From the NCBI GenBank assembly GCA_022709525.1, contig JAKLIQ010000003.1, positions 1,771 to 65,770 on the forward strand: DNA of 64,000 nucleotides. Direction: 5' to 3'. The notes under the pieces are model-generated. The model was not told the origin of the DNA. It was given only the letters and a program-made list of their open reading frames with translations, and ran no database searches. The position numbers and the translations under genes are program-made. Positions 3,767-62,632 of this stretch are shown here, one piece after another; the first letter of the stretch is position 1, and every line of letters begins with the position of its first letter. Origin of the DNA: Candidatus Omnitrophota bacterium. Lineage in GTDB: Bacteria; Omnitrophota; Omnitrophia; Omnitrophales; Aquincolibacteriaceae.

Positions 3767-4660
3767 ATGGATCAAAACAAGCCTCGTTTAATTCTTCATG
3801 TTGGGACCCCAAAGACGGGAACGACAACGCTGCAACAAAGCCTAAACGCCTCACAGAGCCGTTTGTTAAGCAAAGGGATTTTCTATCCTAATATCGAACT
3901 TCATCCCAGGGGCAGGGATAGCTGGATAGTTCATTGTTTGCTGAAAAACGATTTGGACAAACTCCGGAAAAACATCCGGGAAATAGCCGCAAAAGCGCGC
4001 CAAATCGGGGCGAAGCAGGTTGTGTTGTCCTGCGAAGGCATCTATACCCGTTTCCCGAATTTTTCTCGCGAAGCAAAAGAAGCGCTTCGTGAATTTGAAA
4101 AACATTTCACCGTCACCTTATGGTGTATTTTTCGAGAACCTGTTTCTTTCGCGATGTCGCTTTTTTCCCAACCTGTAAAGCATGCGCCGTGCGCCCTTTC
4201 ATCTTGCCACGGCACGTCGGAGCCACCGGAAATCGTGGCCGAACACCCGTGGTTTCAGGAGCGGCTTAACTATAAGGGCTTTATTCAGAACATCGAAGGC
4301 TTATTTTCATCTTCTGTTGTTTTGGCGACCCAATATGAACCGGGCGGCACCATTGAACAGGCAAGAAGCTTGCTGGGCGTTGATGCGGCGATCCTTTGCA
4401 GCGCGCCCGACGCTAACGTGTCCCTTAGCGCCTTAAGCGTTTATCTCATGCGTCGCTTGAATCGATTAACTCTGAAACCAAAAATGCATCGGAAACTTGT
4501 TTCAATCGTAAAAAAAATGGACAAATTTTTGAATAAAATAAGCCCTCCGTTAAGAGCATCCGATGCGATGAAAAGAAAAGTACAAGCCGTCTCTCAAAAA
4601 AGCGAAGAATTTCTCAAGAAAAAATTTGGGATTTGCTGGGATGAGGGGCTCAAATCTTAA
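3767..4660 (+). CDS. Sulfotransferase-family protein (PAPS-dependent).
   Basis: N-terminal LILHVGTPKTGTTTLQ matches the 5'-phosphosulfate-binding PKxGTT loop. A downstream REPVSFAMS-type 3'-phosphate-binding region is present. The gene lies 5 kb upstream of a cysD/cysNC PAPS-synthesis module. Confidence 0.65.
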   Translation: MDQNKPRLILHVGTPKTGTTTLQQSLNASQSRLLSKGIFYPNIELHPRGRDSWIVHCLLKNDLDKLRKNIREIAAKARQIGAKQVVLSCEGIYTRFPNFSREAKEALREFEKHFTVTLWCIFREPVSFAMSLFSQPVKHAPCALSSCHGTSEPPEIVAEHPWFQERLNYKGFIQNIEGLFSSSVVLATQYEPGGTIEQARSLLGVDAAILCSAPDANVSLSALSVYLMRRLNRLTLKPKMHRKLVSIVKKMDKFLNKISPPLRASDAMKRKVQAVSQKSEEFLKKKFGICWDEGLKS

Positions 4661-4689: not shown

Positions 4690-5943
4690 ATGCGAGCGCA
4701 CCTCGAAGCTTTTTATTATGTGATTTTGGAACGGTGGAGACAAAAGGGATGGGCCTGGTTTTTCTCGGGGCTTGCCAGGCGCGTTGTCATTGAATTATTG
4801 TGGCTTGTTTTTTTACCCGTCAGTCTTTTGGGTCACCTGTTGGGCTATCGCTGGCTTTACGCGCAGACATGGCACATCGGACATCTGGCCGCAGACATCG
4901 ATACTTTTCTAAAAGAAAGCCGTCTCGGCCTCTTGTCTAAACGCCGCTGGTTTCTTACCGCGCCTGACCGCCTGACCGCCAATGTCCATTTGCTGCGGTA
5001 TTGGCGCGAGTTCATCCCTGTTGTTTCAGATCCTCTAACGGCTTTTGCGCTCGAATTGATCTCATGGCGATGGTTCATGAAAGAAGACCTGACGCGCTAT
5101 ATTTCAAAACACTTCGGGACGCAAGATATTTACCGGATCAACCGTCTCTGGGGCGACCGTTCTCCCATCCTCCGCCTCAACAAAGAAGATCATGCCTGGG
5201 TTCGGGAAGAGCTGGAAAGCCTCGGTTTAAAAAAAGATCAATGGTTTGTTTGTGTCCATGTTCGCGAGGGCAGTTACTTTCCTAAAAATGAGCCTATCCA
5301 GTCACACCGTAACGCCAGTATTATGAATACCGTATTAGCCATGAAAGAGATCGTTCGCCGGGGAGGGGCATGTATCCGTATGGGCGACCCGGGAATGACC
5401 CCTTTGCCGCCCATTGAAGGGGTGATCGATTATGCGCATCATTCCGCGAAATCCGAGCGGTTGGATATCGCGCTTTGCGCCCAAGCGCGTTTTTTTCTTG
5501 GCTGCACCTCAGGGCTGTCTTTTGTCAGCGCAGCTTTTGGCGTTCCGGTGGCGTTCGCCAATATGATCCCTGTCGAAACGCTCGGCATTCGAAGACACGA
5601 TCTGAGCATGCCAAAACTTCTTTGGAGCGAACCGCTGAACCGTCATCTTCGCTTCGATGAAATTTTTAATTCGAAGGCCAGCGGGTATTTTTTCACGTAT
5701 CAGTATCAAAAAGCCGGCATTCTTCCGGAGGAGAACAGTCCGGAGGATATTTACGACATAACCGTTGAAATGTTGGACCGTCTTGACGGTTGTTTTTATG
5801 AAAAACCCGAAGATCATCGCTTGCAAGCAGCCTATAAGGCGTTTTTTAAACCGGGACATTACAGCTACGGTTCGGATGCCAATGTTTGCGCCGGTTTTCT
5901 CAAGCGACATAAAGATCTTTTCGGCAATAACCCAACGCTTTAA
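4690..5943 (+). CDS. Hypothetical protein, possibly a GT-B-like glycosyltransferase (TIGR04372-like). It has an N-terminal hydrophobic segment.
   Basis: Long uninterrupted ORF with codon usage typical of neighbouring genes. The C-terminal FVCVHVREGS...GD...LGCTSGLSFVSAAFGVP pattern resembles nucleotide-sugar transferase folds. No firm family assignment is possible by eye. Confidence 0.35.
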   Translation: MRAHLEAFYYVILERWRQKGWAWFFSGLARRVVIELLWLVFLPVSLLGHLLGYRWLYAQTWHIGHLAADIDTFLKESRLGLLSKRRWFLTAPDRLTANVHLLRYWREFIPVVSDPLTAFALELISWRWFMKEDLTRYISKHFGTQDIYRINRLWGDRSPILRLNKEDHAWVREELESLGLKKDQWFVCVHVREGSYFPKNEPIQSHRNASIMNTVLAMKEIVRRGGACIRMGDPGMTPLPPIEGVIDYAHHSAKSERLDIALCAQARFFLGCTSGLSFVSAAFGVPVAFANMIPVETLGIRRHDLSMPKLLWSEPLNRHLRFDEIFNSKASGYFFTYQYQKAGILPEENSPEDIYDITVEMLDRLDGCFYEKPEDHRLQAAYKAFFKPGHYSYGSDANVCAGFLKRHKDLFGNNPTL

Positions 5944-15043: not shown

Positions 15044-15079
15044 GGAGAGGTGCCAGAGCGGTTGAATGGGGCAGTCTTG
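15044..15079 (+). pseudogene. 5' half of a tRNA-Ser(UGA)-type gene. It runs from acceptor GGAGAGG through the D-arm to anticodon-loop ...CAGTCTTG, and is interrupted after anticodon position 35.
   Basis: Near-identical to the first 36 nt of the intact tRNA-Ser at 15394..15481. The acceptor GGAGAGG is complementary to CCTCTCC in the 3' half at 15598..15604. Confidence 0.6.
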
Positions 15080-15129
15080 CCACCGCCTGCGAAGCGGCGG
15101 GGTCCCGCCTCTTTTCGGGCGGGAAAAAC
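15080..15129 (+). repeat. Copy 1 of a 50-nt double GC-hairpin element: CCACCGCCTGCGAAGCGGCGGGGTCCCGCCTCTTTTCGGGCGGGAAAAAC.
   Basis: Two stem-loops (CCGCC/GGCGG and CCCGCC/GGCGGG) followed by an A-run. Near-identical copies are at 15509..15558 and 60511..60559. Confidence 0.8.
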
Positions 15130-15145
15130 CAGTTGGGAAAACAAC

Positions 15146-15415
15146 ATGTGGTATGTTTATATTCTCAAGAGCCTGAAAACGGGGCGATATTATGTGGGGT
15201 ATGCAGAAGACCTCGAAAAAAGACTTGAGCAACACAATAGTGGAAAAACGAGATTGTTGAAATCCCATTTGCCACTAGCGCTCATTTATAATGAAAAATA
15301 TGCAAGCAAGTCCGAAGCTTATTTAAGAGAAAAGAAAATCAAGAGTTATAAAAGCGGAGAAGCGTTTAGGCGATTGATACGCAATCAAAATTTGGAGGCG
15401 TGCCAGAGCGGTTGA
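15146..15415 (+). CDS. GIY-YIG nuclease-family protein, small YhbQ/UPF0213 type, 89 aa.
   Basis: MWYVYILKS...GRYYVGYAEDLEKRLEQHNSGK is the GIY-YIG motif. The 15050..15415 ORF in the provided track starts inside the tRNA fragment. The first ATG with spacing from the A-rich leader is 15146. The stop codon lies inside the downstream tRNA gene. Confidence 0.8.
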   Translation: MWYVYILKSLKTGRYYVGYAEDLEKRLEQHNSGKTRLLKSHLPLALIYNEKYASKSEAYLREKKIKSYKSGEAFRRLIRNQNLEACQSG

Positions 15416-15481
15416 ATGGGGCAGTCTTGAAAACTGCTAAGGTCCTTGTGGCCTTCAGAGGTTCGAATCCTCTCGCCTCCG
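15394..15481 (+). tRNA. tRNA-Ser (anticodon UGA), intact, no encoded CCA.
   Basis: Acceptor GGAGGCG/CGCCTCC. 3-bp D-stem. Anticodon stem GCAGT/ACTGC with loop CTTGAAA. Long variable arm. T-arm AGAGG-TTCGAAT-CCTCT. Discriminator G. Confidence 0.8.
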
Positions 15482-15508
15482 ATTCATTTTGATTGCGGAG
15501 CGGTCTTG

Positions 15509-15558
15509 CCACCGCCTGCGAAGCGGCGGGGTCCCGCCTCTTTTCGGGCGGGAAAAAC
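15509..15558 (+). repeat. Copy 2 of the 50-nt double-hairpin element. It is preceded by a 14-nt remnant of a tRNA 5' half (GCGGAGCGGTCTTG).
   Basis: Identical to copy 1. The flanking 5' remnant matches the end of a tRNA-Ser 5' half. Confidence 0.8.
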
Positions 15559-15608
15559 TGCTAAGGTCCTTGTGGCCTTCAGAGGTTCGAATCCCTCCCT
15601 CTCCGCCA
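15554..15608 (+). pseudogene. 3' half of a tRNA-Ser(UGA)-type gene with encoded CCA. It runs from anticodon-loop AAAACTGC through the variable and T arms to acceptor CCTCTCC-G-CCA. Its T-stem is imperfect, so it is probably a decayed remnant.
   Basis: Matches the 3' portion of the intact tRNA. The acceptor pairs with the displaced 5' half at 15044. The T-stem 3' strand CCCTC does not pair well with AGAGG. Confidence 0.5.
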
Positions 15609-15610
15609 TG
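15588..15610 (+). repeat. 23-bp direct repeat, copy 1: CGAATCCCTCCCTCTCCGCCATG. This is the tRNA 3' end and candidate attL-like site.
   Basis: A perfect second copy lies at 15791..15813. Confidence 0.7.
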
Positions 15611-15635
15611 TTTTCATTATGATTCCAAGGAGAAC

Positions 15636-15779
15636 ATGACGACCTTATCGTCAAGATATAGAGAAATCTTGTACGATAAGGCCGTAAACTTTGGGGAGGA
15701 TTCGAAGGGAGCACTGATTGGAAATATGACAGATGTCATATTTACAGTGCGGGTGGCCGACCTGAAGCGAATGAAATGA
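15636..15779 (+). CDS. Small hypothetical ORF of 47 aa between the 23-bp direct repeats.
   Basis: ATG preceded by AAGGAG at 15626. The 15489..15779 ORF in the track starts inside repeat sequence. Weak support overall. Confidence 0.25.
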   Translation: MTTLSSRYREILYDKAVNFGEDSKGALIGNMTDVIFTVRVADLKRMK

Positions 15780-15790
15780 GCGGAAGGCGC

Positions 15791-15813
15791 CGAATCCCTC
15801 CCTCTCCGCCATG
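15791..15813 (+). repeat. 23-bp direct repeat, copy 2 (attR-like).
   Basis: Identical to 15588..15610. Confidence 0.7.
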
Positions 15814-60349: not shown

Positions 60350-60407
60350 TTTTTCGCGCCTTGACCGCAACGCCGCGAACACATAGACTTTAACGCGTTT
60401 TCACGCG

Positions 60408-60465
60408 CGGGACTCGTAAAGAACAAGAAACTAATACGAGTCCCTAGTCCCGAGGCGCGAGTCCC
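60408..60465. repeat. Solo copy of the GGGACTCG...CGAGTCCC inverted-repeat element, with extra GAGTCCC units.
   Basis: GGGACTCG-20 nt-CGAGTCCCTAGTCCCGAGGCGCGAGTCCC. Lies immediately upstream of the second tRNA/GIY-YIG locus. Confidence 0.6.
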
Positions 60466-60474
60466 TGATTAAAA

Positions 60475-60510
60475 GGAGAGGTGGCAGAGTGGTCGGATGC
60501 GGCGGTCTCG
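60475..60510 (+). pseudogene. Displaced 5' half of a tRNA-Ser-type gene: GGAGAGGTGGCAGAGTGGTCGGATGCGGCGGTCTCG. It ends in the anticodon loop after position 35.
   Basis: About 85% identical to the first 36 nt of the intact tRNA at 60831. Its acceptor GGAGAGG does not match that tRNA's 3' strand. Confidence 0.6.
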
Positions 60511-60559
60511 CCACCGCCTGCAAAGCGGCGGGGTCCCGCCTCTTTTGGGCGGGAAAAAC
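60511..60559 (+). repeat. Copy 3 of the double-hairpin element. It is 49 nt, with 2 differences from copies 1 and 2.
   Basis: CCACCGCCTGCAAAGCGGCGGGGTCCCGCCTCTTTTGGGCGGGAAAAAC. Confidence 0.8.
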
Positions 60560-60578
60560 TCAAAAATTTATTTGAATT

Positions 60579-60825
60579 ATGTGGTATGTTTATATTTTAA
60601 AAAGCGAAAAAAACAGGTCGGTATTATACCGGTTATACGGAAGTCCTCGAAAAACGTTTGAAGCAACACAATAGCGGAAAGACAAAATCGCTCAAAGCGC
60701 ATCTGCCAGTTCAAGCTGTTTATATTGAAAAATTTATAAGCAGGCGTGAAGCATTTCAAAGAGAGCGACAAATTAAAAACTACAAAGGCGGAAAAGCATT
60801 TAGACGGTTGATTGAGAAAGGCTGA
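60579..60825 (+). pseudogene. Second GIY-YIG (YhbQ-type) nuclease gene. It is interrupted by a +1 frameshift in an A7 homopolymer at 60607..60613.
   Basis: MWYVYILKSEK- then, in the +1 frame, -TGRYYTGYTEVLEKRLKQHNSGKTKSLKAHLPVQAVYIEKFISRREAFQRERQIKNYKGGKAFRRLIEKG. Its first 18 nt are identical to the 15146 gene. The stop lies 5 nt before the tRNA. Confidence 0.65.
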
Positions 60826-60830
60826 TTCGC

Positions 60831-60917
60831 GGAGGTGTGGCAGAGCGGTCGAATGCGGCAGTCTCGAAAACTGTTAACCGCGTAAGCGGTTCGGAGGTTC
60901 GAATCCTCCCGCCTCCG
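60831..60917 (+). tRNA. tRNA-Ser (anticodon CGA), no encoded CCA.
   Basis: Acceptor GGAGGTG/CGCCTCC with one G-U pair. 3-bp D-stem. Anticodon loop CTCGAAA. Long variable arm CCGCGTAAGCGG. T-arm GGAGG-TTCGAAT-CCTCC. Confidence 0.75.
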
Positions 60918-60958
60918 TATTATTTTTTAAGAAAGCAATAATTAAAGAAGGAAAAATT

Positions 60959-62632
60959 TTGGACTATTTAATTTTTGCCAGGAAATTCAGACCTCAAACC
61001 TTTGAGGAGATCGTTGGGCAGGGGACCATCACGACAACCCTGAAGAATGCGATCCGCCAGGAACGCGTGCCGCAAAGTTTTCTTTTTTCCGGCCCCCGCG
61101 GTGTGGGAAAAACCTCGACGGCGCGCATTCTCGCCAAAGCTCTCAATTGCAAAGAGGGTCCCACCGAAAAACCCTGCGGCAAATGCGTCTCCTGCAAAGA
61201 GATCGAACAGGGAAGCTCCATGGACGTTCTCGAGATCGACGGCGCGTCGAATCGCGGCATTGAAGAGATCCGCACACTGCGGGAAAACGTCAAATTCAAA
61301 CCTTCAGCGGGTCGTTACAAGATCTATATTATCGACGAAGTCCATTCCTTGACCGGCGACGCTTTTAACGCGCTCCTCAAGACCCTTGAAGAGCCGCCTG
61401 CCCATGTCAAATTCATTTTTGCCACGACCGAATCCCACAAAGTGCCGCTTACCATCCTGTCGCGCTGCCAGCGGCTTCAGTTCCAGCGGATCTCGGTTCC
61501 GGAAGCCGTCGAAAAGCTCGAAAAGATCGCGCAGAAAGAAAAATTAAAATACGAAAAGAACGCACTTTTTCTGATCGCCAAGAATACCGAAGGCGCGCTT
61601 CGCGATGCCGAAAGCCTTCTTGATCAACTGGCGAGTTTTTCGGAAGGAAAGATCAAAGAAGAGGATGTTCTGACGCTTTTAGGGCTCGCCTCGGAGGAGA
61701 CCTATCTTTCGGTCCTTGGGGCGATCCGAGCCAGAAAGGGCGAAGAAGTTTTTGAATTCGTCAAAAAGATCTACGCGGAAGGCGCCGATCTCGCGCAATT
61801 CGCCAAAGGGCTTTTCGAGACCTTCCGCAATCTTTTAATGCTCCAAACAGCGCCCGGCGCCAAATCCCTTATCGAAGCGAACCCTGAAACCATCTCCAAC
61901 CTTCAAAAACTGGCGGCCGGTTTTTCTCAAGGGGAATTGCTTTTGGGCCTTTCGATCCTTCAAAATCTCCAGGCCCAGTTGCGCCGACCGGTGGCGTCGC
62001 CCAAACTTCTTTTGGAAGCCGCGCTTCTCAAGCTTGTTTATATGGAAAACTTAAGACAGATCGATGAAGTCATTCGAGAGGGGGAAGCGGGCAAAAAGAG
62101 CAGCGAAGCGGTTTCGGTTGTGGAAAAAAAAACTCAAAAACCGGATATAATCGCCCCCGAAAATAAAACCAATCCAAAACCGCGAAAAATCCCCGAAGCG
62201 TCCGATGCCGGAATGTCGTCTGCGGCATCTTTGCAACCGGCGCCGAGCGGCGATCTGACGCTTAACGAGGTTGAAAAAGCTTGGCCTCAGGTGATCGAGC
62301 GCGTTAAGGCAAAACGCATGTCGACAAGTCTTTTCCTGGCGGAAGCCGAACCCGCGGAGGTCGAAGGATCCGTCATTATTTTAGGCCTGCCCTCGGAATT
62401 CCGTTTTCATAAAGAGACGCTCGAAAAAGATTCTAACAAACAGATCATCGAAGAGGCGTTCACTCAGGCGCTTGGGAAAAAAGTCCGCGTCCAATGCGTC
62501 GTGACCGAGCGCGAAGGCGCGGTCCAGGGAGCGCCTGAAGAAATTCCTCCCGTCAAAAATGAAGAAATGCCGGACATTGTTTCCAAGGCCCTTGAGATCT
62601 TTGACGGTTCCAAGGTGATCCGTAAAGACTGA
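60959..62632 (+). CDS. dnaX: DNA polymerase III subunits gamma/tau.
   Basis: AAA+ motifs GPRGVGKTS and DEVHSL. Zinc-module cysteines (CKEGPTEKPCGKCVSCK). Confidence 0.9.
   Translation: MDYLIFARKFRPQTFEEIVGQGTITTTLKNAIRQERVPQSFLFSGPRGVGKTSTARILAKALNCKEGPTEKPCGKCVSCKEIEQGSSMDVLEIDGASNRGIEEIRTLRENVKFKPSAGRYKIYIIDEVHSLTGDAFNALLKTLEEPPAHVKFIFATTESHKVPLTILSRCQRLQFQRISVPEAVEKLEKIAQKEKLKYEKNALFLIAKNTEGALRDAESLLDQLASFSEGKIKEEDVLTLLGLASEETYLSVLGAIRARKGEEVFEFVKKIYAEGADLAQFAKGLFETFRNLLMLQTAPGAKSLIEANPETISNLQKLAAGFSQGELLLGLSILQNLQAQLRRPVASPKLLLEAALLKLVYMENLRQIDEVIREGEAGKKSSEAVSVVEKKTQKPDIIAPENKTNPKPRKIPEASDAGMSSAASLQPAPSGDLTLNEVEKAWPQVIERVKAKRMSTSLFLAEAEPAEVEGSVIILGLPSEFRFHKETLEKDSNKQIIEEAFTQALGKKVRVQCVVTEREGAVQGAPEEIPPVKNEEMPDIVSKALEIFDGSKVIRKD

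Follow-up and report, generated by a model that had tools for sequence, protein, structure and literature searches.

The stretch of DNA analysed here (the window, 64,000 nt) comes from the metagenome-assembled genome (MAG) of a Candidatus Omnitrophota bacterium (assembly GCA_022709525.1, contig JAKLIQ010000003.1, positions 1,771-65,770 of the forward strand). According to ARAGORN and Rfam scans of all 64 kb, it contains only two tRNA genes, a tRNA-Ser(TGA) at 15393-15482 and a tRNA-Ser(CGA) at 60830-60918. Both take part in the same arrangement, in which the 5' half of a tRNA-Ser gene is followed by a double-hairpin element (DHE), an open reading frame (ORF) encoding a GIY-YIG nuclease and an intact tRNA-Ser gene (locus 1, 15044-15608; locus 2, 60475-60918). 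A previous examination of the bare sequence (hereafter the sequence-only reading) had described locus 2 as a second copy of the order seen at locus 1, and all the features it described are present there. The pattern matches used at both loci had zero occurrences in shuffled sequence.

The first of these features at locus 2, on the + strand like all the others, is the displaced 5' half of a tRNA-Ser(CGA) gene (60475-60510), 36 nt covering tRNA positions 1-35 and running from the acceptor strand GGAGAGG to GGTCTCG (60504-60510), the anticodon stem and loop bases that stand directly 5' of the DHE (the locus-1 equivalent is GTCTTG). It ends after G35, i.e. after the second anticodon base, and the locus-1 half ends at the same position, just as the sequence-only reading had it. 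On sequence comparison, the segment is a remnant of the resident tRNA gene. The DHE itself (60511-60558, 48 nt; 48.4 bits with a covariance model) consists of CCA, a first helix H1 (CCGCC/GGCGG), GG, a second helix H2 (TCCCGCC/GGCGGGA) and AAAA; compared with both locus-1 copies, it has a substitution (G to A) at 60522 and lacks a single nt, in agreement with the two differences counted earlier. A 20-nt spacer separates it from the GIY-YIG ORF (60579-60825, start ATGTGGTATGTTTATATT), which has 81 codons once a +1 frameshift is corrected and whose first 18 nt are, as had been reported, identical to those of the locus-1 ORF. The frame is broken in an A7 run (60607-60613) that is A6, and in frame, in the relative L009 (related loci in other assemblies are referred to by L numbers). 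The A7 run may reflect a recent inactivation, an assembly error or a site where slippage, in transcription or in translation, limits nuclease expression; the remaining ORF looks selected. The complete tRNA-Ser(CGA) gene (60830-60918; acceptor GGAGGTG/CGCCTCC; ARAGORN and Rfam), which is probably both the cargo of the cassette and the functional gene, closes the arrangement, and dnaX starts 3' of it at 60959.

Upstream of the displaced half, by about 85 nt, lies a sigma-70-like promoter match (TTGACC-17-TAGACT, 60361-60389, + strand). It is a match to the consensus only, and could possibly be the original promoter of the tRNA gene, now driving the whole cassette. The interval 60408-60470 contains an inverted repeat, GGGACTCGTA...TACGAGTCCC, followed by more copies of AGTCCC; a similar motif is found in L001 (2125-2195).

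Locus 1, also on the + strand, begins with the displaced 5' half of a resident tRNA-Ser(TGA) gene (15044-15079, acceptor strand GGAGAGG), recognized by sequence comparison, and continues with a left DHE copy (15080-15128; pattern and covariance model) and an intact GIY-YIG ORF of 89 aa (15146-15415; ORF and Pfam), the last seven codons of which lie inside the intact inner tRNA-Ser(TGA) gene (15393-15482; acceptor GGAGGCG/CGCCTCC; ARAGORN and Rfam). These are followed by GGTCTTG and a right DHE copy (15502-15557, of which the DHE is 15509-15557; pattern and covariance model), and by the displaced 3' half of the resident tRNA-Ser(TGA) (15554-15608), whose terminal CCTCTCCGCCA pairs perfectly with the outer GGAGAGG. 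The T-stem of this outer tRNA is disrupted, as can be read directly from the sequence. A displaced tRNA 3' half, present at locus 1, was not found at locus 2. Mechanical ORF calling lengthens the locus-1 nuclease to 121 aa, starting it from a GTG at 15050 and running through the tRNA 5' half and the DHE (15050-15415).

Similarity between the two loci is confined to the cassette. BLASTN aligned only 15044-15490 with 60475-60926, at 73% identity, and the flanks are unrelated, so that the difference in flanks pointed out in the sequence-only reading was correct; because the similarity stops at the cassette edges, this supports the case against a segmental duplication. Identity is very uneven along the cassette: 96% in the element, despite saturated synonymous sites in the adjoining ORFs, 81% in the tRNA, 75% in the 5' half, 69% in the ORF and 29% in the spacer.

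The outer half of locus 2 is identical at 35 of 36 positions to the functional tRNA-Ser(CGA) of L124 and at 34 of 36 to that of L162, as against 31 of 36 for the intact tRNA beside it. The acceptor strand of the half is unable to pair with the 3' end of that tRNA, and the inner acceptor strands match each other. The outer GGAGAGG is the functional acceptor in L009, L108, L124 and L162. Across the Omnitrophota loci the outer halves mostly carry GGAGAGG, and the inner tRNAs carry GGAGGCG, GGAGGTG, GGAGGAG, GGAGGGA or GGAGAGG, each with its own matching acceptor 3' strand. Because the outer half is closer to the functional tRNA of relatives and its acceptor strand is unpairable with the neighbour, the resident gene appears to have been replaced, and the inner tRNA looks imported. 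The earlier remark that the displaced half carries GGAGAGG, and its neighbour does not, therefore stands, but the ancestral resident tRNA of the lineage is a better explanation of it than a link to the outer tRNA of locus 1. A different model, in which only a 5' half was imported and the inner tRNA is a chimera of donor and target, was rejected for the window because the inner acceptor strands match and the outer 5' strand is left unpaired with the inner 3' strand.

Both ORF products match the Pfam GIY-YIG family PF01541 (55.9 and 61.7 bits against a cut-off of 22.6; E 5e-15 and 9e-17) and consist of this one domain only, with lengths of 89 aa at locus 1 and 81 aa, after correction, at locus 2. 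The only other Pfam match, T5orf172, is marginal (E 4e-4) and covers the same residues. In an alignment of 24 homologues Y5, Y16, R26, H30, N31 and E62 are invariant. An AlphaFold (AF2) model (pLDDT 77) shows the strand-strand-helix-strand-helix-helix order expected for a GIY-YIG domain, and the top Foldseek matches, i.e. the nearest solved structures, are UPF0213, Slx1 and the I-TevI catalytic domain. A search of PDB by sequence matched the same three, and no solved structure of the Ssn nucleases, discussed below, was found there. Once the frame is corrected by removal of one A, the proteins of the two loci show 68% identity over 78 residues, so that the figure of about 50% given in the sequence-only reading was too low. 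Between the Omnitrophota copies non-synonymous differences amount to 13-22% and synonymous sites are saturated (dN/dS about 0.1), which implies purifying selection on the nuclease and old copies. Neighbour joining places the Omnitrophota nucleases in a single clade in which TGA and CGA loci are mixed, and this indicates that the cassette has moved between isoacceptors. The locus-2 nuclease is closest to those of L007 (TGA, 77%) and L009 (CGA, 72%), and the locus-1 nuclease to that of L006 (70%); on these sequence relationships the two are old paralogues, each with a closer relative in another genome.

The family is large, with 26,691 proteins at E <=1e-3 and 6,655 at E <=1e-10 in a library of representatives at 50% identity, and its best 150 members are mostly 80-130 aa long. 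Many database members carry N-terminal extensions of 20-50 residues, probably the same ORF-calling artefact that lengthens the locus-1 nuclease.

A scan of GTDB (one genome per species) with a peptide pattern of the family retrieved 416 relatives, and the best 80 (L006-L085), from Omnitrophota, Patescibacteria, Bacteroidota, Ignavibacteria and other groups, were analysed. A tRNA gene starts on the same strand within 60 nt 3' of the ORF in 60 of these 80 loci and lies directly 5' of it in 11 more; a tRNA is found somewhere within the locus of about 3 kb in 79. The tRNAs 3' of the ORF are Ser (39, including all four isoacceptors), Tyr (10), Glu (5), Pro (2) and Ala, Gly, Thr and Cys (one each). 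The bias towards tRNAs with a long variable arm that the sequence-only reading had led one to expect is thus seen in Ser and Tyr, which account for 49 of the 60, but does not extend to tRNA-Leu, which in none of the related loci has the ORF directly 5' of it.

An ungapped copy of the tRNA 5' end lies within the 100-200 nt 5' of the ORF in 37 of the 62 cases in which an ORF is followed by a tRNA. These copies stop at linear positions 13-16, 20-22, 29-30 or 35-36, which places their ends in the D-loop, the anticodon stem or the anticodon loop. When gaps are allowed, in most loci the copy resumes after an inserted DHE-type hairpin, so that the upstream piece is a tRNA 5' portion reaching to about positions 30-55 and interrupted in its loops. 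The complementary 3' part is found downstream in several loci (positions 1-36 plus 37-87 in L007, and 1-14 plus 15-86 in L068). The architecture was also recovered in metagenomic loci retrieved by the hairpin element alone, and it is present in well over 100 independent assemblies.

Some relatives carry stacked remnants. In L001, which has tadA upstream like locus 1, two stacked 5' halves with different hairpin elements precede the ORF, and L124 also has stacked tRNA 5' fragments, with a hairpin element after each. In L162, which is syntenic with locus 2 (tRNA-Ser(CGA) and then dnaX), a 15-nt tRNA fragment, a hairpin resembling the NTS repeats of Neisseria and a UPF0213-like GIY-YIG gene are followed by a 5' half, a DHE, 34 nt and the tRNA. 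Because the UPF0213-like gene has a tRNA fragment and a hairpin of its own, at least two GIY-YIG subfamilies use the tRNA-nested layout; in this segment (L162 12240-12580) the protein is 40% identical to the locus-1 protein, and the hairpin reads TCATTCGCGG...GCGAATGA. At the other end of the cassette, '(A)CGGTCTTG + DHE' stands 3' of the tRNA in L006, L007, L008 and L112, as it does at locus 1, and L006/L089 and L008 have two or three tandem units there, each made of trailer, CGGTCTTG, DHE, variable arm, GGTTCG, a second DHE, and AATCC with the acceptor 3' strand. An ORF-less form (5' half, DHE, about 35 nt, tRNA) occurs in L108, L124 and L162, and near-variants of it with somewhat longer spacers in L103 and L137; ORF-less and differently occupied versions of one and the same site thus exist (L162).

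Over the 64 kb, the covariance model detects exactly three copies of the DHE, each of which scores 48 bits on the + strand and 11 on the opposite one; nothing in the rest of the window scores above 12 bits. The consensus of 26 copies from several phyla is CCACCGCC-loop-GGCGG-GGT-CCCGCC-loop-GGCGGG-AAA. In these copies 97.7% of the cells of the two-helix structure are paired, and five of the 12 pairs show compensatory changes, for example replacement of C-G by T-A at the base of H1, and by T-A or G-C in H2; none of 500 shuffles reached the observed values, and slid controls paired at 41-60%. As DNA, the element folds equally well on either strand. It is always found on the transcribed strand, both in the window and in the GTDB loci, and in the 80 GTDB loci strong hits occur only less than about 100 nt 5' of the ORF or just 3' of the tRNA. 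GTCTTG or GTCTCG stands directly 5' of all three window copies, and the motif is kept 5' of right-hand copies even where the remaining tRNA 5' half is lost.

The sites of DHE insertion in tRNA genes are recurrent: the anticodon loop (YTNG|AAAA in Ser, CTG|TAAA in Tyr), the 3' side (GGYTG|AA) and the 5' side (GA|GTGG) of the D-loop, and the T-loop (GTTCG|AATCC). At sites without TTG or AAA, the DHE arrives with CTTG or TAAA (L005, L025, L033, L063, L018, L029, L085), which suggests that the full unit is CTTG-hairpins-AAAA, with microhomology at its junctions.

In metagenome contigs the DHE pattern has at least 118 matches. Among the matches listed there are 84 copies in 80 loci: 22 are followed by a GIY-YIG ORF within 11-71 nt, 38 lie less than 600 nt from a tRNA, and about half are solo, far from any tRNA or ORF. 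Some of the listed solo copies sit inside loops of unrelated hairpins (L095, L127). Others are found in AT-rich heptamer-like repeats, as ...AAAATTG|DHE|AAAATTG... (L102, L120, L135, L147, L149, L159 and others), where the AAAATTG flanks may have arisen by duplication of the target site, may mark a repetitive sequence that is preferred as a target, or may be left over from earlier events. In L160 (about 4245-4320) a DHE lies within the loop of a hairpin matching the Neisseria NTS consensus, and NTS repeats of the Neisseria type (TGTCATTCCCGCGAAAGCGGGAATCCAG) occur in DHE-bearing environmental contigs (L160, L103 at 1540 and 1611, L123, L187).

An alternative fold of the element pairs the 3' arm of H1 with the 5' arm of H2 (GGCGGGGTCCCGCC) and is followed by TCTTTT (60527-60546, 15096-15115 and 15525-15544); this could act as an attenuator of read-through into the ORF. 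The element as a terminator was considered and rejected, since the count of terminator-like folds is not above the shuffled expectation.

On sequence and layout, the closest characterised relatives of the cassette nuclease appear to be the Ssn proteins. SsnA of Neisseria meningitidis, a 94-aa single-domain GIY-YIG protein, requires single-stranded DNA for binding to the oriented NTS hairpin repeat, and its cut falls a few nt 5' of the repeat (Chenal et al. 2025, PMC11893778). Repeats of this kind usually flank the Ssn homologues, and the arrangement NTS-ssnA-NTS has been likened to an insertion sequence (IS). These enzymes, characterised in 2025, are the first site-specific single-stranded DNA endonucleases, and their role outside Neisseria and the origin of the repeats were left open (PMC11893778). 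The cassette resembles them in its single-domain GIY-YIG protein of about 90 aa with the same spacing of the catalytic Tyr, Tyr and Glu, in the oriented 20-50-nt hairpin repeats that flank the gene (on both sides at locus 1, upstream at locus 2) and also exist as many solo copies, in the type of stem (TCCCGC...GCGGGA, preceded by GTC), and in the IS-like repeat-gene-repeat layout. Homology is also clear to a 94-aa GIY-YIG protein of a Shinella plasmid whose gene is flanked by four copies of the Ssn-related motif (SRM) (hhalign probability 98%, E 2e-13), the family profile matching UPF0213 (PDB 1zg2) equally well (3e-13 vs 2e-13). In contrast with the Ssn systems, the cassette is nested in tRNA genes and has a cargo tRNA (tRNA is not mentioned in PMC11893778), its C-terminal motif is KSYKSGxAF instead of KRWxRxWK...NPxW, and its repeat is a double hairpin, which in the window departs from the published SRM pattern. 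That pattern does match eight DHE copies in related loci, as 'AGTCTTG + H1', where the anticodon stem of tRNA-Ser provides the GTC, and GTCTYG 5' of the DHE may well correspond to the conserved 'GTC' flank of the Ssn-related motifs.

The nuclease-repeat-tRNA unit, its repeated insertion in tRNA loops, the replacement of the resident tRNA and the occurrence of solo and ORF-less derivatives are established by these data. The idea of a targeted, possibly homing-like process, already put forward in the sequence-only reading, is supported by the unrelated flanks, the old paralogues, the stacked remnants and the position of 71 of the 80 loci at Ser, Tyr, Glu, Pro, Gly, Ala, Cys or Thr tRNAs. We consider it probable, although well short of certain, that a selfish, homing-like cassette which lives in tRNA genes and brings its own replacement tRNA was acquired a second time, independently, at locus 2. 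Such a cassette would consist of a single-domain nuclease of the Ssn/UPF0213 type, one or two cognate DHEs and the complete replacement tRNA, and the locus-2 copy may now be decaying.

In this reading, the incoming cassette would have split the anticodon of the resident tRNA-Ser(CGA) gene between bases 35 and 36, leaving the resident 5' half, probably with its promoter, upstream, and the cargo tRNA would have taken over the function; the resident 3' half would have survived at locus 1 and been lost at locus 2. By analogy with SsnA, the nuclease may bind the DHE and the preceding GTCTYG on the single-stranded sense strand and nick nearby. Transcription would expose the sense strand in this form within the bubble, and replication would do so on the lagging-strand template for co-oriented genes. 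The GC skew across the window is too flat to give the direction of replication. Recombination through the arms homologous to the tRNA could then repair the break, or a single-stranded unit could be excised and re-inserted; by either route the same tRNA gene, or a related one, would receive a copy of the cassette. The DHE would also spread alone, into loop sequences of the TNG|AA type. If a unit DHE-ORF-tRNA-trailer-CGGTCTTG repeatedly entered the anticodon loop of the currently functional tRNA, each round would push a 5' half upstream and a 3' part downstream, which would produce the stacked 5' halves and the tandem 3' parts; locus 1 would correspond to exactly one round.

A number of observations weigh against this reading. 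The intact inner tRNA keeps the presumed target loop sequence, and its immunity is not accounted for. The cassette encodes no rejoining enzyme, recombinase or transposase that could insert the hairpin, and GIY-YIG hydrolases are not known to rejoin DNA. SegB-type homing enzymes carry an added DNA-binding domain; the protein described here ends about 15 residues past its catalytic domain and has no C-terminal DNA-binding domain, so that it is not a classical homing endonuclease. The published SRM pattern has no match in the window, in our view because the H1 loop of the window copies is longer than the 5 nt allowed. No match to the DHE pattern was found in viral contigs, and a search of plasmid proteins returned remote GIY-YIG relatives only, one of them the Shinella protein, so that no vector is known. 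A search through DnaX homologues did not find an uninterrupted (empty) site, and relatives with a 65-79% identical DnaX have another gene upstream of dnaX and no tRNA there. Finally, judging from the sequence divergence, the depth of the split and the purifying selection are equally compatible with long vertical inheritance or domestication as with mobility.

A wider view, which we regard as tentative and rather doubtful, is that the GIY-YIG protein and the DHE represent a new class of mobile DNA that reads tRNA genes as folded single-stranded cloverleaves. It would insert in D, anticodon and T loops without a transposase or recombinase and survive in single-copy essential tRNA genes by means of the replacement tRNA, and the Ssn/NTS repeats would be its tRNA-free descendants or relatives, with a 'GTC' flank derived from the anticodon stem of tRNA-Ser.

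Alternatively, the whole arrangement might be a domesticated operon, in which a resident host GIY-YIG gene is co-transcribed from the tRNA promoter and the tRNA fragment and hairpins form a leader (for processing, stability or attenuation), the tRNA fragments being relics of one ancient event and nothing being mobile now. The strong purifying selection and the saturated synonymous divergence speak for it, as do the same tadA-linked layout in L001, L002 and probably L006, the tight spacing of ORF and tRNA in 60 of the 80 loci, which suggests one transcript, the constant strand of the DHE, the terminator-like score of its alternative central hairpin and T-run, and the promoter-like site 5' of the displaced half. 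However, stacked 5' halves and tandem 3' parts require repeated insertions; moreover, various tRNA species are occupied, isoacceptors switch within one nuclease clade, inner and outer acceptor stems differ, ORF-less and frameshifted copies exist, and about half of the listed metagenome DHE copies are solo, far from tRNA and ORF. We therefore hold such a purely domestic origin to be unlikely.

A somewhat fainter prospect is that the hairpin is the primary agent, similar to a miniature inverted-repeat transposable element, with a preference for TNG|AA loops. Its insertion would kill a tRNA copy, a duplicated tRNA would be the rescue, and the GIY-YIG gene would be a nearby trans-acting mobiliser. 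This would account for the solo DHEs, which occur within AT-rich repeats or inside loops of unrelated hairpins, some of them NTS-like, for the presence of up to three hairpins in one 45-nt tRNA fragment (L103, L018, L029, L033), for the CTTG or TAAA brought along at non-TTG sites and for the ORF-less loci with 5' half, DHE and tRNA. By itself, it explains neither the precise placement of the ORF between fragment and intact tRNA in 60 of the 80 loci nor the foreign acceptor stems of the inner tRNAs; it is also largely compatible with a homing-like cassette and hence not an exclusive alternative.

The anticodon-loop position and the GIY-YIG ORF also recall the group I introns of phages and bacteria, and one could imagine a tRNA intron, either of group I or of a novel type, with a gene for a homing endonuclease, the outer halves being spliced into a functional tRNA. 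The NCBIfam model for group I intron endonucleases (TIGR01453) indeed matches weakly, with 20 bits, far under its cut-off of 56. However, Rfam, both at the gathering threshold and at E <=1, gives only tRNA and chance hits and no ribozyme, the insert holds a complete tRNA, locus 2 lacks a 3' half, the T-stem of the outer tRNA is disrupted at locus 1, and outer fragments elsewhere are truncated at many different positions. This reading was dropped as highly improbable and effectively excluded, since the Rfam scans revealed no intron, ribozyme or other known RNA besides tRNA. The least credible option, a segmental duplication or a mis-assembly of the MAG, as two similar loci in one 64-kb window might suggest, is effectively excluded by the comparison of flanks and relatives (73% identity restricted to the cassette, unrelated flanks, a closer relative of each copy in another genome) and by the recurrence of the architecture in well over 100 independent assemblies.

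The cassette shares traits with several further systems. According to PMC2330249 and PMC13096335, SegB of phage T4 is a free-standing GIY-YIG homing endonuclease encoded in the phage tRNA cluster, which cleaves in the tRNA region, promotes the inheritance of itself and of the neighbouring tRNAs and can drive segmental amplification. The likeness lies in the GIY-YIG gene among tRNA genes and, in addition, in tandem arrays of tRNA-Pro, hairpin and GIY-YIG ORF (period about 363 nt; L030 1010-2460, L060 1020-1990), which recall the SegB amplification in T-even phages. SegB, however, is a phage enzyme that is not known to have hairpin repeats, split tRNA halves or nested remnants; the present family is chromosomal, with proteins of about 85 aa, and viral contigs contained no match to its hairpin.

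In the REP/BIME-RAYT and IS200/IS605 systems (discussed in PMC11893778), as here, hairpin repeats are oriented on one strand, solo copies are intergenic and a small nuclease gene is flanked by the repeats. Unlike them, the cassette has no HUH/Y1 transposase: the only ORF with a domain match at the two cassettes is the GIY-YIG hydrolase. Integrative elements that target tRNA genes also use the tRNA gene as landing site, carry tRNA sequence that keeps the function and leave a partial copy behind. They do so with a tyrosine integrase and duplicate the 3' part, whereas here it is the 5' part that is displaced, the cargo is an entire tRNA and no integrase ORF was found in or beside either cassette.

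A parallel for the replacement of the interrupted gene comes from fungal mitochondria, where mobile endonuclease ORFs (Allomyces atp6, Glomus mORFs) insert in a gene and bring a replacement gene end. There the essential gene is disrupted, the displaced part is left as a pseudogene, and small GC-rich double hairpins or GC clusters spread alongside. These systems are organellar, have protein-coding targets and belong to other endonuclease families or use two-domain GIY-YIG proteins, and are not known to target tRNA loops.

Two further observations concern the surroundings of the cassettes. 3' of locus 1, a module of about 120-200 nt (15609-15811) contains an inverted T-arm-like motif (GGAGGATTCGAA...) and closes with a second direct copy of the segment from the tRNA T-loop to the 3' end (15787-15811). 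The same layout is found in several phyla (L005, L022, L027, L033, L063, L069, L079, L124), and in several of these, such as L005, L027 and L069, a terminator-like hairpin opens the module. It may represent either the element's right end or another type of insertion at the T-loop. The D-loop of stacked fragments also harbours another insert of about 75 nt (ggcag|ccctgatttt...aggcagg|gcag; L001 2210-2290, L008 about 1385-1460, L124 about 4905-4985), whose flanking GCAG repeat suggests that a further small mobile element has made use of this pseudo-tRNA sink.

The literature searched, the coverage of which leaves out most subscription journals, yielded no account of a small GIY-YIG gene lying inside a tRNA gene. 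The cassettes thus seem to belong to a very widespread, apparently undescribed, tRNA-associated branch of the single-domain GIY-YIG and hairpin-repeat systems. For genome annotation, this means that tRNA halves and hairpin-interrupted pieces beside real tRNA genes are easily mistaken for split or intron-containing tRNAs, and that gene callers run the nuclease ORFs through the tRNA fragment. For the biology of the family, the association of nuclease gene, hairpin and tRNA in one unit provides a natural context for Ssn relatives in at least five phyla, and offers candidate substrates (GGTCTYG plus hairpin, and tRNA-Ser loops) together with a concrete model of how the repeats spread. It would also represent a new strategy for a selfish element, namely, to replace the essential gene that it destroys.

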